Shown: positions 57,486-64,000, numbered from the stretch's first letter. The stretch: DNA of 64,000 nucleotides from Escherichia coli (GCF_013122565.1 NZ_CP053258.1), one strand, 5' to 3'. Notes: a model not told the origin generated them from the sequence alone. Translations and numbers: made by a program.

Positions 57486-59765
57486 ATGGATGACCAGTTA
57501 AAACAAAGTGCACTTGATTTCCATGAATTTCCAGTTCCAGGGAAAATCCAGGTTTCTCCAACCAAGCCTCTGGCAACGCAGCGCGATCTGGCGCTGGCCT
57601 ACTCACCAGGCGTTGCCGCACCTTGTCTTGAAATCGAAAAAGACCCGTTAAAAGCCTACAAATATACCGCGCGCGGTAACCTGGTGGCGGTGATCTCTAA
57701 CGGTACGGCGGTGCTGGGGTTAGGCAACATTGGCGCGCTGGCAGGCAAACCGGTGATGGAAGGCAAGGGCGTTCTGTTTAAGAAATTCGCCGGGATTGAT
57801 GTATTTGACATTGAAGTCGATGAACTCGACCCGGACAAATTTATTGAAGTCGTCGCTGCGCTCGAACCGACCTTCGGCGGAATCAACCTCGAAGACATTA
57901 AAGCGCCAGAATGTTTCTATATTGAACAGAAACTGCGCGAGCGGATGAATATTCCGGTATTCCACGACGATCAGCACGGCACGGCAATCATCAGCACTGC
58001 CGCCATCCTCAACGGCTTGCGCGTGGTGGAGAAAAACATCTCCGACGTGCGGATGGTGGTTTCCGGCGCGGGTGCCGCAGCAATCGCCTGTATGAACCTG
58101 CTGGTCGCGCTGGGGCTGCAAAAACATAACATCGTGGTTTGCGATTCAAAAGGCGTTATCTATCAGGGCCGTGAGCCAAACATGGCGGAAACCAAAGCCG
58201 CATATGCGGTGGTGGATGACGGTAAACGTACCCTCGATGATGTAATTGAAGGTGCGGATATTTTCCTCGGCTGTTCCGGCCCGAAAGTGCTGACCCAGGA
58301 AATGGTGAAGAAAATGGCTCGGGCACCAATGATCCTGGCGCTGGCGAATCCGGAACCGGAAATTCTGCCGCCGCTGGCGAAAGAAGTGCGTCCGGATGCC
58401 ATCATTTGCACCGGTCGTTCTGACTATCCAAACCAGGTCAACAACGTCCTTTGCTTCCCGTTTATCTTCCGTGGCGCGCTGGACGTTGGCGCAACGGCTA
58501 TCAATGAAGAGATGAAACTGGCGGCAGTACGCGCGATTGCGGAACTGGCCCACGCCGAACAGAGCGAAGTGGTGGCTTCTGCGTATGGCGATCAGGATCT
58601 TAGCTTTGGCCCTGAATACATCATTCCAAAACCGTTCGATCCGCGCTTGATCGTTAAGATCGCTCCTGCGGTCGCGAAAGCGGCGATGGAGTCGGGCGTG
58701 GCGACGCGTCCGATTGCTGATTTCGACGTCTACATCGACAAGCTGACTGAGTTCGTTTACAAAACCAACCTGTTTATGAAGCCGATTTTCTCCCAGGCTC
58801 GCAAAGCGCCGAAGCGCGTAGTTCTGCCGGAAGGGGAAGAGGCGCGCGTTCTGCATGCCACTCAGGAACTGGTAACGCTGGGACTGGCGAAACCGATCCT
58901 TATCGGTCGTCCGAACGTGATCGAAATGCGCATTCAGAAACTGGGCTTGCAGATCAAAGCGGGCGTTGATTTTGAGATCGTCAATAACGAATCCGATCCG
59001 CGCTTTAAAGAGTACTGGACCGAATACTTCCAGATCATGAAGCGTCGCGGCGTCACTCAGGAACAGGCGCAGCGGGCGCTGATCAGTAACCCGACAGTGA
59101 TCGGCGCGATCATGGTTCAGCGTGGCGAAGCCGATGCAATGATTTGCGGTACGGTGGGTGATTATCATGAACATTTTAGCGTGGTGAAAAATGTCTTTGG
59201 TTATCGCGATGGCGTTCACACCGCAGGTGCCATGAACGCGCTGCTGCTGCCGAGTGGTAACACCTTTATTGCCGATACATATGTTAATGATGAACCGGAT
59301 GCAGAAGAGCTGGCGGAGATCACCTTGATGGCGGCAGAAACTGTCCGTCGTTTTGGTATTGAGCCGCGTGTTGCTCTGTTGTCGCACTCCAACTTTGGTT
59401 CTTCTGACTGCCCGTCGTCGAGCAAAATGCGTCAGGCGCTGGAACTGGTCAGGGATAGTGCGCCAGATCTGATGATTGATGGTGAAATGCACGGCGATGC
59501 AGCGCTGGTGGAAGCGATTCGCAATGACCGTATGCCGGACAGCCCTTTGAAAGGTTCCGCCAATATTCTGGTAATGCCAAACATGGAAGCTGCCCGCATT
59601 AGTTACAACTTACTGCGCGTTTCCAGCTCGGAAGGTGTGACTGTCGGTCCGGTGCTGATGGGCGTGGCGAAACCGGTTCACGTGTTAACGCCGATCGCAT
59701 CGGTACGTCGTATCGTCAACATGGTGGCGCTGGCCGTGGTTGAAGCGCAAACCCAACCGCTGTAA
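57486..59765 (+). CDS. maeB: NADP-dependent malic enzyme (malic enzyme fused to PTA-like domain)
   Basis: 759 aa; [35 protein letters not shown]... Confidence 0.95.
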
Positions 59766-60055
59766 TTCTTTTTTAACTCTCACGCTTACCCTGAATATTC
59801 AGGGTAAGCGGTTTAGCTGCAATATATTAGTAAAGCTTATTACTGAGTTTACGAATAATAAAAAAAGCAATATAAAATATCTCGATATTATTTTATTTAT
59901 ATTCATGCGTCGCATATGAAAGTTTATTCATAACAGTAAATATCTCTCCATTCTTAGTGATCTACCTCACCTTTTAAACGTGCTTGCCGAATTTTGTTAT
60001 TTACTCTGACGAAAAATTGTCACGATACACGAAAGTTTTTCACAGGCGGCGACTC

Positions 60056-60391
60056 ATGGATAAAGAACGCATCATTCAGGAATTTGTGCCCGGCAAACAG
60101 GTCACACTGGCGCATCTCATCGCGCATCCCGGCGAGGAACTGGCGAAGAAAATCGGCGTTCCGGATGCTGGCGCAATCGGCATTATGACGTTAACTCCTG
60201 GCGAAACGGCGATGATCGCCGGTGATTTAGCACTGAAAGCCGCCGATGTGCATATCGGTTTTCTCGACCGTTTTAGCGGCGCGCTGGTGATTTATGGCTC
60301 GGTGGGTGCAGTAGAAGAAGCGTTATCACAAACCGTCAGTGGTTTAGGTCGCTTATTAAATTATACGCTTTGTGAAATGACCAAAAGTTAA
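60056..60391 (+). CDS. eutS: Ethanolamine-utilisation microcompartment shell protein (permuted BMC domain)
   Basis: ORF trimmed to [34 protein letters not shown]... (111 aa). Confidence 0.9.
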
Positions 60392-60403
60392 TACGAGGCA
60401 TTC

Positions 60404-60883
60404 ATGAAACGAATTGCGTTTGTGGGTACCGTCGGGGCAGGGAAAACAACGTTATTTAATGCGTTGCAGGGGAATTATACCCTCGCCAGAAAAACACAGG
60501 CCGTGGAATTTAATGATAAGGGCGATATTGATACGCCGGGTGAATATTTTAGCCATCCCCGCTGGTATCACGCCTTAATTACCACGCTACAGGATGTGGA
60601 CATGCTGATCTATGTCCACGGCGCGAATGACCCGGAAAGTCGGTTGCCTGCCGGGTTGCTGGATATTGGCGTCAGCAAACGGCAAATCGCCGTCATCAGT
60701 AAAACGGACATGCCAGATGCTGACGTCGCCGCAACGCGAAAGTTATTGCTTGAGACGGGCTTCGAAGAGCCGATTTTCGAGCTAAACAGCCACGACCCGC
60801 AAAGCGTGCAGCAACTGGTGGATTATCTGGCATCTCTCACCAAACAGGAGGAAGCAGGTGAAAAAACTCATCACAGCGAATGA
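60404..60883 (+). CDS. eutP: Ethanolamine-utilisation P-loop protein EutP
   Basis: 159 aa; Walker A GTVGAGKTT. Confidence 0.9.
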   Translation: MKRIAFVGTVGAGKTTLFNALQGNYTLARKTQAVEFNDKGDIDTPGEYFSHPRWYHALITTLQDVDMLIYVHGANDPESRLPAGLLDIGVSKRQIAVISKTDMPDADVAATRKLLLETGFEEPIFELNSHDPQSVQQLVDYLASLTKQEEAGEKTHHSE

Positions 60884-61547
60884 TATTCGTGAAGCACACG
60901 CGCGTGGCGAACAGGCAATGTCCGTGGTTCTGCGCGCCAGCATTATTACCCCGGAAGCCCGTGAAGTGGCGGACCTGCTGGGTTTTACCATCACTGAATG
61001 CGAGGAATCGACACCAGCAACGGTATCTGTGCCCGTAGAGAAAACCGAAAGCCAGCGCATCCGCGAAACCATCATTGCCCAGCTGCCGGAAGGCCAGTTT
61101 ACCGAAAGCCTGGTCGCGCAGTTGATGGAAAAAGTGATGAAGGAAAAACAGTCGCTGGAGCAGGGTGCAATGCAGCCGAGCTTTAAATCGGTGACCGGCA
61201 AAGGCGGCATCAAAGTTATTGATGGTAGCAGCGTCAAGTTTGGTCGCTTTGATGGCGCACAACCGCATTGCGTGGGCTTGACTGATCTTGTGACCGGAGA
61301 CGACGGCAGCAGCATGGCCGCCGGTTTTATGCAGTGGGACAACGCCTTCTTCCCGTGGACCCTGAACTACGACGAAATCGACATGGTGCTGGAAGGGGAG
61401 CTGCATGTTCGCCACGAAGGCGAAACCATGATCGCCAAAGCAGGCGACGTGATGTTTATCCCGAAAGGCTCCAGCATCGAATTTGGTACGACATCCAGCG
61501 TGAAATTCCTGTATGTCGCCTGGCCGGCTAACTGGCAATCCCTATGA
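60858..61547 (+). CDS. eutQ: Ethanolamine-utilisation cupin-fold protein EutQ
   Basis: ORF begins at GTG 60858 (VKKLITANDIREAHARGEQ...) after a GGAGGAAG RBS; overlaps the eutP 3' end by 26 nt; exact start uncertain. Confidence 0.85.
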   Translation: MKKLITANDIREAHARGEQAMSVVLRASIITPEAREVADLLGFTITECEESTPATVSVPVEKTESQRIRETIIAQLPEGQFTESLVAQLMEKVMKEKQSLEQGAMQPSFKSVTGKGGIKVIDGSSVKFGRFDGAQPHCVGLTDLVTGDDGSSMAAGFMQWDNAFFPWTLNYDEIDMVLEGELHVRHEGETMIAKAGDVMFIPKGSSIEFGTTSSVKFLYVAWPANWQSL

Positions 61548-62347
61548 AAGATTTCATCACCGAAGCATGGCTAAGAGCGAACCATACGCTCAGCGAAGGC
61601 GCAGAGATCCATCTCCCTGCGGACAGTCGCCTGACGCCCTCTGCCCGGGAGTTGCTGGAAAGCCGCCATCTGCGCATCAAGTTTATTGACGAGCAGGGCC
61701 GCCTGTTTGTTGACGATGAACAGCAGCAGCCGCAGCCCGTTCATGGGCTGACCAGTAGCGATGAACATCCGCAGGCGTGCTGCGAACTGTGCCGCCAGCC
61801 GGTGGCAAAAAAGCCGGATACGCTGACTCACCTGTCGGCGGAAAAAATGGTCGCCAAAAGCGATCCGCGCCTGGGTTTTCGCGCGGTTCTCGACAGCACC
61901 ATTGCGCTGGCAGTGTGGCTGCAAATTGAACTGGCAGAACCGTGGCAGCCATGGCTGGCGGACATCCGCTCGCGTCTTGGCAACATTATGCGTGCCGATG
62001 CGCTGGGGGAACCGTTGGGCTGCCAGGCGATTGTCGGGCTTTCTGACGAAGATCTGCATCGGCTTTCTCACCAGCCGCTGCGCTATCTCGACCACGATCA
62101 TCTGGTGCCGGAAGCCAGCCACGGGCGCGATGCTGCGTTGCTGAATCTGCTACGCACCAAAGTGCGGGAAACCGAAACCGTAGCGGCGCAGGTGTTTATC
62201 ACCCGCAGCTTTGAAGTATTACGCCCGGACATCTTGCAGGCGCTGAACCGCCTTTCGAGCACGGTCTACGTGATGATGATCCTGAGCGTAACGAAGCAGC
62301 CGCTAACGGTGAAGCAGATCCAACAACGACTGGGGGAAACGCAATGA
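61544..62347 (+). CDS. eutT: Ethanolamine-utilisation corrinoid adenosyltransferase
   Basis: 267 aa; [37 protein letters not shown]...; 4-nt overlap with eutQ. Confidence 0.9.
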
Positions 62348-63360
62348 TTATTGAACGTTGTCGTGAACTGGCGTTGCGAGCGCCCGCCAGAGTGGTTTTT
62401 CCGGATGCGTTAGATCAACGTGTGCTGAAAGCTGCGCAATATTTACATCAACAAGGTCTGGCAACGCCCATTCTGGTCGCTAATCCGTTTGAACTTCGTC
62501 AGTTTGCGCTCAGTCATGGCGTAGCGATGGACGGGCTACAGGTGATTGATCCGCATGGCAACCTCGCAATGCGGGAAGAATTTGCTCATCGCTGGCTGGC
62601 CCGCGCGGGCGAAAAAACGCCGCCGGATGCGCTGGAAAAACTTACCGATCCGCTGATGTTCGCCGCCGCAATGGTCAGCGCCGGTAAAGCGGATGTCTGT
62701 ATCGCGGGCAATCTCTCTTCCACGGCGAATGTGCTGCGTGCCGGATTACGCATTATTGGCTTGCAGCCAGGCTGTAAAACGCTCTCATCCATTTTCCTGA
62801 TGCTGCCACAGTACAGCGGTCCGGCGTTGGGTTTTGCCGATTGCAGCGTGGTGCCACAGCCGACGGCGGCACAACTGGCGGATATCGCGCTTGCCAGCGC
62901 CGAAACCTGGCAGGCCATCACCGGAGAAGAACCGCGCGTGGCGATGCTGTCGTTTTCCAGCAATGGTAGCGCCCGTCACCCCTGCGTTGCCAACGTCCAG
63001 CAGGCGACAGAAATCGTCCGTGAGCGCGCACCAAAGCTGGTTGTCGATGGCGAGTTGCAGTTTGACGCCGCCTTCGTGCCGGAAGTGGCGGCGCAAAAAG
63101 CGCCTGCCAGCCCGCTACAAGGCAAAGCCAATGTGATGGTTTTTCCGTCGCTGGAGGCAGGAAATATTGGCTACAAAATCGCACAACGACTCGGCGGATA
63201 TCGTGCCGTCGGGCCATTGATACAAGGGCTTGCCGCGCCGATGCACGATCTCTCTCGTGGTTGTAGCGTGCAGGAAATTATCGAGCTGGCGCTGGTGGCA
63301 GCTGTGCCGCGTCAGACAGAAGTGAACCGCGAAAGCAGTTTACAAACACTGGTTGAATGA
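62344..63360 (+). CDS. eutD: Phosphotransacetylase (PTA-type) of the eut operon
   Basis: 338 aa; [34 protein letters not shown]...; PTA catalytic-domain fold; 4-nt overlap with eutT. Confidence 0.92.
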
Positions 63361-63398
63361 ACGGTCCCGTTCTGGACCCTGATAAAGAGGAAAGCACA

Positions 63399-63692
63399 AT
63401 GGAAGCATTAGGAATGATCGAAACCCGGGGCCTGGTTGCACTGATTGAGGCTTCTGACGCGATGGTGAAAGCTGCGCGCGTCAAGCTGGTTGGTGTTAAG
63501 CAGATTGGCGGCGGCCTGTGTACTGCCATGGTTCGTGGTGATGTTGCAGCCTGTAAAGCAGCGACCGATGCCGGTGCCGCAGCGGCACAGCGTATCGGCG
63601 AGCTGGTATCTGTACACGTTATCCCGCGTCCGCACGGCGACCTGGAAGAAGTGTTCCCGATCGGCCTGAAAGGCGATAGCAGCAACCTGTAA
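63399..63692 (+). CDS. eutM: Ethanolamine-utilisation BMC-domain shell protein
   Basis: ORF trimmed to [33 protein letters not shown]... (97 aa); AAGAGG RBS. Confidence 0.93.
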
Positions 63693-63798
63693 TCACCCTG
63701 TGTGACGTCGATTCGGGCGTCACGCTCTCTCATTTTTCATTTTACCTTCCGCGGAGGGTAGGGGGAGCTTTTACCTGAAATACGCCACGGAGGCGGGT

Positions 63799-64000
63799 AT
63801 GAAACTGGCAGTCGTCACTGGACAAATTGTTTGTACCGTACGCCATCACGGACTGGCGCATGACAAATTGCTGATGGTGGAAATGATTGATCCACAAGGT
63901 AATCCTGACGGGCAATGCGCCGTCGCCATCGACAATATTGGCGCGGGAACCGGGGAGTGGGTGTTGCTGGTGAGTGGCAGTTCTGCCCGCCAGGCGCATA
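63799..64000 (+). CDS. eutN: Ethanolamine-utilisation BMC vertex protein EutN (5' fragment; truncated by window end)
   Basis: MKLAVVTGQIVCTVRHHGLAHDKLLMVEMIDPQGNPDGQCAVAIDNIGAGTGEWVLLVSGSSARQAH...; an open frame in the ORF track only as a partial; GGAGG RBS upstream. Confidence 0.85.
   Translation, partial: MKLAVVTGQIVCTVRHHGLAHDKLLMVEMIDPQGNPDGQCAVAIDNIGAGTGEWVLLVSGSSARQAH

Follow-up and report, generated by a model that had tools for sequence, protein, structure and literature searches.

The eut locus and its genes

The window analyzed here is a 64,000-nucleotide (nt) stretch of Escherichia coli DNA (GCF_013122565.1, NZ_CP053258.1), whose positions 59,766 to 64,000 belong to the ethanolamine-utilization (eut) locus. 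With high confidence, this part is read as the beginning of the canonical enterobacterial 17-gene, EutR-controlled eut operon of an E. coli lineage, comprising the promoter region and the first seven genes. The operon is already known and is among the best-studied microcompartment loci, and its position beside maeB is the norm in E. coli. What goes beyond the known operon is the 106-nt spacer between eutM and eutN, which has a predicted two-hairpin structure, is conserved far beyond synonymous sites, and may lower the expression of eutN relative to that of eutM. The genes are as follows.

60056–60391, + strand: eutS, BMC-domain shell protein, 111 amino acids (PF00936; NF012012 EutS, 247 bits against a cut-off of 123, model positions 1–111)
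60404–60883, + strand: eutP, P-loop protein annotated as acetate kinase, 159 amino acids (PF10662, PduV-EutP; NF012011, 352 bits against 258)
60858–61547, + strand: eutQ, 229 amino acids, GTG start (Pfam EutQ/cupin; NF012001, 484 bits against 193, residues 1–229)
61544–62347, + strand: eutT, EutT-type corrinoid adenosyltransferase, 267 amino acids (NF011595, 571 bits against 226, full length; PF01923, Cob_adeno_trans, residues 95–246)
62344–63360, + strand: eutD, phosphotransacetylase, 338 amino acids (PF01515, PTA_PTB, 418 bits; NF007233, 411 against 310; TIGR00651, pta, 331 against 311)
63399–63692, + strand: eutM, major hexameric shell protein, 97 amino acids (Pfam BMC, PF00936; NF012018, 213 bits against 133, model positions 1–97)
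63799–64000, + strand: eutN, pentameric vertex shell protein, first 67 of 95 codons, running off the window end (PF03319, EutN_CcmL; NF011992, 149 bits against 118, model positions 1–67 of 95)

The order eutS-eutP-eutQ-eutT-eutD-eutM-eutN, all on the plus strand, had been proposed in an initial annotation of the sequence and matches both the six-frame list of open reading frames (ORFs) and the raw sequence; the overlaps proposed with it (26 nt for eutP/eutQ and 4 nt each for eutQ/eutT and eutT/eutD) are exact. The gene identities that it gave are backed by the Pfam and NCBIfam matches and by the RefSeq annotation of relatives. All seven products score above the curated NCBIfam cut-offs with end-to-end alignments (EutN being partial and EutD matched through the pta/phosphotransacetylase models). 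The same gene order, starts, and overlaps are found in the Prokaryotic Genome Annotation Pipeline (PGAP)/RefSeq annotation of four E. coli genomes: W5-6, K-12 MG1655, O157:H7 PV15-279, and Res13-Sevr-PER07-33. Longer ORFs from the first available start, namely TTG at 59984 for eutS and ATG at 63357 for eutM, were rejected; they are not used in RefSeq, and the shorter starts already fill the NCBIfam models 1–111 and 1–97.

The shell signature of a microcompartment is present, with BMC-H (PF00936) in eutS and eutM and BMC-P (PF03319) in eutN. By homology, three of the products are shell proteins, namely EutS, EutM as the major hexamer, and EutN as the vertex pentamer, and EutQ, which consists of N-terminal shell/cargo-bridging helices and a cupin domain, would serve as shell–cargo bridge and acetate kinase. 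EutT would regenerate adenosylcobalamin (AdoCbl), and EutD would turn acetyl-CoA into acetyl-phosphate; EutP is also among the products. The translated EutT contains H67-X11-C79-C80-X2-C83 (C79-C80-E-L-C83), which corresponds to HX11CCX2C, presumably the cysteine/histidine metal-binding motif of EutT-type corrinoid adenosyltransferases.

Predicted structure of the eutM–eutN spacer

This half of the operon has a single long untranslated gap, the spacer between eutM and eutN, whose predicted elements are listed below.

63693–63798, + strand: eutM–eutN spacer, 106 nt, structured, without annotated feature (conservation and predicted fold)
63700–63725, + strand: hairpin 1, the core 63702–63723 with two outer pairs, followed by the pyrimidine/U-rich tract CTCTCTCATTTTTCATTTT (terminator-like in the pattern scan; GC-rich stem of 8–10 bp)
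63724–63768, + strand: hairpin 2, two-tier, with outer helix GCTCTCTC/GGGGGAGC and inner helix TACCTTC/GAGGGTA (minimum-free-energy structures)
63784–63798, + strand: eutN ribosome-binding region, with the Shine–Dalgarno sequence (SD) GGAGG at 63789–63793 partly within a small hairpin, GCC-ACGGA-GGC (predicted fold)

The initial annotation had placed a hairpin at 63702–63723, and both its coordinates and its arms (GTGACG...CGTCAC) are exact; what it understated is the extent, since the conserved spacer structure to which this hairpin belongs is larger. TTTT and then the invariant ACCTGAA (63773–63779) come after hairpin 2. In addition, GGGT at 63795–63798, before the eutN AUG, pairs with ACCC at 63695–63698, after the eutM stop, in a closing helix. 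The fold z-score of the 121-nt spacer region is −2.1. A pattern such as hairpin 1 is expected by chance 0.1 times per window, a post-hoc figure that is weak evidence alone; the reality of hairpin 1 rests on its conservation across genera. The terminator scan lists 63700–63725 among 6 sites against 5.8 expected in shuffled sequence, that is, without enrichment.

CsrA sites typically present a GGA in a short hairpin loop, in most cases with two or more such motifs, one of them at the SD. Three GGA motifs lie in the predicted structure, one in GCC-ACGGA-GGC over the eutN SD and two in hairpin 2; the resemblance to CsrA sites is in sequence only, and the SD itself explains the conservation. Two further candidates within the spacer were rejected. 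A pseudoknot between the hairpin-1 loop UUCGGG and ACCUGAA, considered by eye, fails in Citrobacter, whose loops carry no complementary sequence, and a small ORF (GTG at 63702, 19 codons) has no SD and is crossed by loop indels between genera that are not multiples of three.

Conservation and distribution of the spacer

Of 5426 E. coli genomes, 5407 have the spacer exactly once, without an annotated feature, and none is listed in K-12 either. The Rfam scan of the spacer gave no match even at E ≤ 10, and the scan of the whole stretch likewise gave nothing meaningful. The same architecture is found in other Escherichia species, the Citrobacter freundii complex, and Klebsiella spallanzanii, and in a reduced form in Buttiauxella and Entomohabitans. 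In O157:H7 PV15-279, the spacer is 100% identical to that of the window.

The hairpin-1 core GTGACG/CGTCAC is invariant, the loop length differs by more than 20 nt among genera, and pair 7 occurs as U-G, C-G, or U-A. In the inner helix of hairpin 2, the changes are compensatory, ACCUUC/GAGGGU being replaced by GUUCUC/GAGAGC or GCCCUC/GAGGGC. Over an alignment of 19 sequences, 96.5% of the cells of the consensus fold are paired, compared with 41–64% when partners are slid by 1–3 columns; double changes occur at 8 pairs against 4.1 in shuffles, and 2 of 500 shuffles reach the observed number.

From the 3' arm of hairpin 1 to the AUG, a stretch of 82 nt, identity to C. werkmanii is 92.7%, compared with 56.3% at the 4-fold sites of the flanking genes; against Escherichia sp. 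MOD1-EC7003, the corresponding values are 100% and 82.7%. Conservation so far beyond synonymous sites indicates that the spacer is under selection. Other genera carry different structures at the same spot: palindromes of the repetitive extragenic palindromic (REP) type in Salmonella, Klebsiella, C. koseri, C. amalonaticus, and Pseudocitrobacter, and other GC-rich hairpins in Yokenella and Intestinirhabdus. A stable hairpin or a REP palindrome was present in the eutM–eutN gap of all 44 loci examined.

Gene overlaps and protein abundance

In K-12 grown on ethanolamine, the relative proteomic abundances are EutQ 100, EutM 96, EutL 39, EutB 37, EutE 27, and EutC 24, followed on the same scale by EutS 11, EutD 10, EutK 8, EutP 7, EutG 7, and EutN 1 (PMC11334477). 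The pentamer protein is the rarest shell component in both the Eut and the pdu compartment (PMC11334477). The Salmonella pdu operon resembles eut in that shell genes (BMC-H, BMC-P) are interleaved with enzyme genes, but it differs in signature enzyme, regulator (PocR), and gene set, and it does not occur in the window.

By the same values, EutQ is about 14 times as abundant as EutP, although eutQ starts inside eutP (PMC11334477). Its own strong SD must therefore drive most of the initiation at eutQ, and the 26-nt overlap does not amount to 1:1 coupling; gene overlap does not imply equal expression. The eutT and eutD starts each lie in an ATGA 4-nt overlap with the preceding stop codon; eutT has no recognizable SD, and that of eutD is modest. 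The ATGA junction is the classical arrangement for termination–reinitiation coupling. Tight junctions of this kind would couple neighboring cistrons, and initiation at eutT and eutD probably depends on ribosomes finishing the preceding gene. The EutD protein is a low-abundance product (10 on the scale with EutQ at 100; PMC11334477).

Across the initiation regions of the seven genes, the predicted opening energy is highest for eutN (10.5 kcal/mol) and lowest for eutM (2.5 kcal/mol); that of eutQ is 8.3 kcal/mol.

The start of eutQ

The initial annotation had asked for the eutQ start to be checked, and GTG at 60858 is well supported by the SD, by conservation of the codon, by the model alignment, and by deletions in Salmonella. 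The SD AGGAGG at 60846–60851 lies 6 nt upstream of the GTG and is conserved. Over 40-odd loci, the start codon is GTG in Escherichia, Salmonella, Citrobacter, and Klebsiella, with ATG at the same place in Buttiauxella, Yokenella, Entomohabitans, Pseudomonas, and Pseudothauera; the length of the overlap with eutP varies among taxa (26, 23, or 4 nt). The N-terminal sequence MKKLITANDIR persists down to an overall identity of approximately 47%, and the NCBIfam EutQ model aligns from residue 1.

In Salmonella, codons 1–9 of eutQ overlap eutP (PMC12487888). The helices H1/H2 of Salmonella EutQ (residues 9–41) bind the shell and H3/H4 bind cargo peptides, and every deletion breaks assembly (PMC12487888). 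A start at an internal codon such as Met21, with the 26-nt overlap as an annotation artefact, can be suggested from the minority status of GTG as a start codon and from the in-frame ATG (Met21) 60 nt downstream of it. It is nevertheless very improbable in view of the AGGAGG spacing, the ATG at the same codon in five other genera, the conserved N-terminus, and the alignment from residue 1; a start at Met21 would lose H1, and in Salmonella, the deletions 9–21 and 9–41 abolish shell–cargo association (PMC12487888).

Residues 1–37 of EutQ (60858–60968) resemble residues 1–37 of EutT (61544–61654), with 14 of 37 positions identical (pairwise E = 2e-4), and no Pfam family covers the N-terminal 37 amino acids of either protein. 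EutT may use the same shell handle as H1/H2 of EutQ. A likeness of the EutQ N-terminus (residues 6–88) to EutA was dismissed: the match to the N-terminus of the NCBIfam EutA variant model NF007991 (E = 5e-7) lies far below the cut-off and was not reproduced with K-12 EutA. The pairwise comparison of EutT with EutA found no similarity.

The maeB–eutS leader and promoter region

Upstream of eutS, the following features were identified.

57486–59765, + strand: maeB (NADP-malic enzyme), upstream neighbor (759-amino-acid ORF; maeB lies at the same position in annotated relatives)
59766–60055, + strand: maeB–eutS intergenic leader, 290 nt, AT-rich, with the main eut promoter region (GC 32.4%; no Rfam match)
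59783–59810, + strand: 12-bp hairpin directly after the maeB stop (fold of −22 kcal/mol, z = −4.8, stability matched by 0 of 200 shuffles)
59956–59971, no strand assigned: conserved inverted repeat AGTGATCTACCTCACC, candidate EutR operator (AGTGATC and TCA invariant in 12 genera or species)
59984–60003, + strand: conserved putative core promoter block TTGCCGAATTTTGTTATTTA (TTGCCGA..TTTGTTATT at 59984–60002 invariant; extended −10-like TGtTATTTA at 59995–60003)
60009, + strand: inferred transcription start, giving a 47-nt 5' untranslated region (UTR) (by alignment, homologous to the base at which the Salmonella eutS RNA, ACAAAAAATTGCCACGATG..., begins)

The 290-nt AT-rich leader that the initial annotation had described is borne out in coordinates and composition. 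GC content falls to 23.8% in its core at 59813–59955 (23–25% over 59800–59950), compared with 55.8% in eut coding DNA. The AT-rich middle is specific to Escherichia, and the last ~110 nt, proximal to the promoter, are conserved across Enterobacteriaceae, from Escherichia to Buttiauxella. The Rfam covariance-model scan of the leader returned chance-level matches only, far below the gathering scores. The stable hairpin at 59783–59810 is probably the maeB terminator or a 3'-end structure of the maeB transcript; it was missed by the terminator pattern scan because the T-run after it is weak.

According to the E. coli and Salmonella literature, one main promoter, P1, upstream of eutS would drive the operon, and EutR, an AraC-family protein encoded at the far end of the operon, would activate P1 when ethanolamine and AdoCbl are both present. 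That EutR targets the eutS promoter is established (PMC4643982), and transcription of the whole operon from P1, with ethanolamine and AdoCbl as co-inducers, has been reviewed (PMC5821096). The DNase I footprint of EutR in enterohemorrhagic E. coli covers a conserved promoter element just upstream of the P1 −35 (review, PMC5821096). The location of the inverted repeat at 59956–59971 is consistent with this footprint, which makes it a candidate EutR operator. Its GTGA-N6-TCAC core resembles a CRP site, centered near −45.5 from the putative start and not at −41.5; no usable literature statement on CRP control of P1 was found. CsrA increases expression in Salmonella, where it binds the leader RNA of eutS; the gel-shift RNA starts at the base homologous to 60009 (PMC10433801). 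The block TTGyCAcgAT at 60017–60026, within the putative 5' UTR of eutS, is nearly invariant from Escherichia to Entomohabitans; it may be an operator, a site acting on the RNA, or, should transcription begin further downstream, part of the promoter.

Some points count against the assignment of the locus given at the outset. A simple sigma-70 consensus scan of the leader found no promoter, which fits an activator-dependent promoter, and the core promoter block is assigned by conservation. The transcription start at 60009 and the −10 element are putative and placed by homology. The distal genes, including those of the signature enzyme (eutBC) and of the regulator (eutR), lie beyond the window, so that ethanolamine use through this copy of the operon is a prediction.

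Relation to other E. coli and state of the operon

The eut part (4.3 kb) is matched in 5423 of 5426 complete E. coli genomes, with a best identity of 97.8%. DNA identity is 97.4–97.8% to E. coli and 92.6–94.6% to other Escherichia species; the eut part diverges by approximately 2.2–2.6% from every one of the 5426 genomes. For the 24.7 kb upstream, the best match among complete RefSeq E. coli is 98.7% (identity measured over 35001–64000). The EutT protein of the window is a very common allele, the contigs compared through it being 97.5–97.7% identical, and a scan of GTDB species representatives gave no identical locus. On these identities, the window belongs to E. coli sensu stricto, and its lineage is unrepresented among the collections searched.

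With the 17-gene eutSPQTDMNEJGHABCLKR operon (EUT1-type) of K-12 and Salmonella enterica LT2, the window shares the gene order, the maeB neighbor, the 26- and 4-nt overlaps, and a eutM–eutN gap of 106–107 nt. The proteins are identical or near identical; the differences are the DNA divergence from E. coli given above and the 229-amino-acid EutQ, as in Salmonella. Compared with relatives, almost all changes are synonymous: eutQ has 28 nt changes and 0 amino-acid changes relative to W5-6, EutS, EutM, and the partial EutN have 0 protein differences, and EutT has 0 differences from K-12. Since the differences are overwhelmingly synonymous, the locus is under ordinary purifying selection.

The eutQ gene is unusually polymorphic within E. 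coli. The allele of the window has at most 97.0% DNA identity to any of the 5426 complete genomes, and 5212 genomes are only 90–95% identical in eutQ, with the neighbors eutP and eutT at 98–99%; in this more distant class, K-12 and the other relatives examined have the longer EutQ of 233 amino acids. The 229-amino-acid form of EutQ is found in the window, in Salmonella, and in ~200 E. coli genomes, and most E. coli, K-12 included, have 233 amino acids; the indel of 4 amino acids sits in a flexible linker, at residues ~48–62.

The initial annotation had left the completeness of the distal part, including an interruption by a prophage, as not readable from the window, and we agree; relatives show both intact and interrupted states. 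An intact 17-gene operon from eutS to eutR, ending at hemF, is present in the E. coli relative Res13-Sevr-PER07-33. In K-12 MG1655, the cryptic prophage CPZ-55 lies between eutA and eutB, and in O157:H7 PV15-279, phage genes (tape measure, HNH endonuclease) directly follow eutA, the fetched stretch stopping before eutB. The latter genome also has a eutT shortened by 72 nt and a eutQ that, with an internal stop, is annotated as a pseudogene. Inactivation of eut can take another route, as in three genomes (DAM, ANT, and NZ_OY754409.1) where IS1A is inserted in the eutS–eutN stretch. The genes for the signature enzyme ethanolamine ammonia-lyase (eutBC) and for the reactivase (eutA) are present in relatives and would lie beyond the window end in this genome. 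Of 5423 complete E. coli genomes, 4964 gave a contiguous match to a probe of the eutA–eutB junction, which gives a prior of ~0.9 for an intact junction; approximately 8.5% lack contiguity.

The prophages of K-12 and PV15-279, the damaged eutQ and eutT of the latter, the IS1 insertions in DAM and ANT, and the share of genomes without a contiguous eutA–eutB junction would all suit an operon that is broken or decaying, for example through a prophage or insertion sequence downstream of the window, so that the seven genes no longer support ethanolamine use. This is improbable here. The seven ORFs are intact and full length against the family models (eutN up to the window end), the almost exclusively synonymous differences point to continued purifying selection, and the large majority of E. 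coli genomes retain the intact junction. Outside the window, the eutG–eutH gap varies from ~100 to ~516 nt among E. coli strains, which suggests a differing number of repeat elements.

Proposed role of the spacer

We read the eutM–eutN spacer, with confidence a little short of even, as an expression step-down in which the predicted folded hairpins are combined with the small hairpin over the eutN ribosome-binding site. The spacer hairpins would guard the 3' end of the upstream eutS–eutM message after cleavage or partial termination, and eutN, with its structured start region, would lack a ribosome arriving from upstream to open it. The outcome would be very little EutN beside abundant EutM. 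Because of the opening energies of eutN (10.5) and eutM (2.5) and the EutM:EutN:EutE ratio of 96:1:27, the spacer would act mainly through low translation of eutN; protecting, or leakily terminating, the upstream message would be a secondary role.

REP elements and bacterial interspersed mosaic elements (BIMEs) are intercistronic palindromes, for example, at malE–malF, that serve as 3'-exonuclease barriers and attenuators inside operons. The spacer resembles them in its position, after a gene of high expression and before one of low expression, and both form stable stem-loops. It differs in that the E. coli spacer has no GCCGGATAAG-type REP motif, is single copy per genome, and has its own two-hairpin architecture; the GCCGGATAAG-type motif is present in the spacers of Salmonella, Klebsiella, and some Citrobacter and absent from that of the window. 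The spacer is also similar to Rho-independent terminators, as the stem of hairpin 1 is followed by a T-rich tract and hairpin 2 by TTTT. However, the T tract is interrupted by C and lacking in Yokenella, and the downstream genes are well expressed, so that hairpin 1 is at most a leaky terminator.

A more specific proposal, put forward as a possibility on the doubtful side, is that the spacer is an undescribed, lineage-specific cis-regulatory RNA of Escherichia, the C. freundii complex, K. spallanzanii, and, in the reduced form, Buttiauxella/Entomohabitans. It would set an EutM:EutN ratio of ~100:1 through 3'-end protection or leaky termination together with occlusion of the eutN ribosome-binding site, and it would possibly be bound by CsrA; unrelated REP palindromes would have the same role in Salmonella and Klebsiella. 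Full-text literature searches, in which the founding operon papers were not covered, found no description of a eutM–eutN stem-loop.

Several observations weigh against a step-down by the spacer. The invariance of the hairpin-1 core means that no covariation is offered there, and the covariation alignment comprises 19 related sequences, with the structure derived from the same sequences. Termination at hairpin 1 is doubtful because its U-tract is interrupted by C and absent in Yokenella. EutE (27), encoded downstream of eutN, is still abundant, and any transcriptional step-down is therefore modest; the deficit of EutN would then be mostly translational, or it would be a measurement bias for a 95-amino-acid protein, for which intensity-based absolute quantification (iBAQ) values are rough. 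The opening-energy argument alone is weak because eutQ, at 8.3 kcal/mol, gives the most abundant product.

The invariance of the core can also be taken another way, as it would be expected of a protein-recognition site. The spacer or its hairpin would then have no role at the RNA level and would be a protein-binding palindrome in double-stranded DNA, the relic of an inserted repeat, or an incidental palindrome. The mobile REP palindromes at the same place in other genera imply that the gap tolerates insertions, and the fold z-score is only modest. We nevertheless consider this explanation unlikely. The spacing of the half-sites differs by more than 20 nt among genera, which suits a hairpin loop and not a dimeric DNA site, and hairpin 2 shows compensatory changes. 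The spacer is also single copy rather than dispersed, lacks the REP motif of the other genera, and is conserved far above synonymous sites.

In the engineering of Eut compartments, too much or too little vertex protein leads to malformed shells. If the reading of the spacer as an expression step-down is true, an RNA spacer would explain how the ratio of EutM to EutN is set from one transcript, and it would be a potential reusable part.

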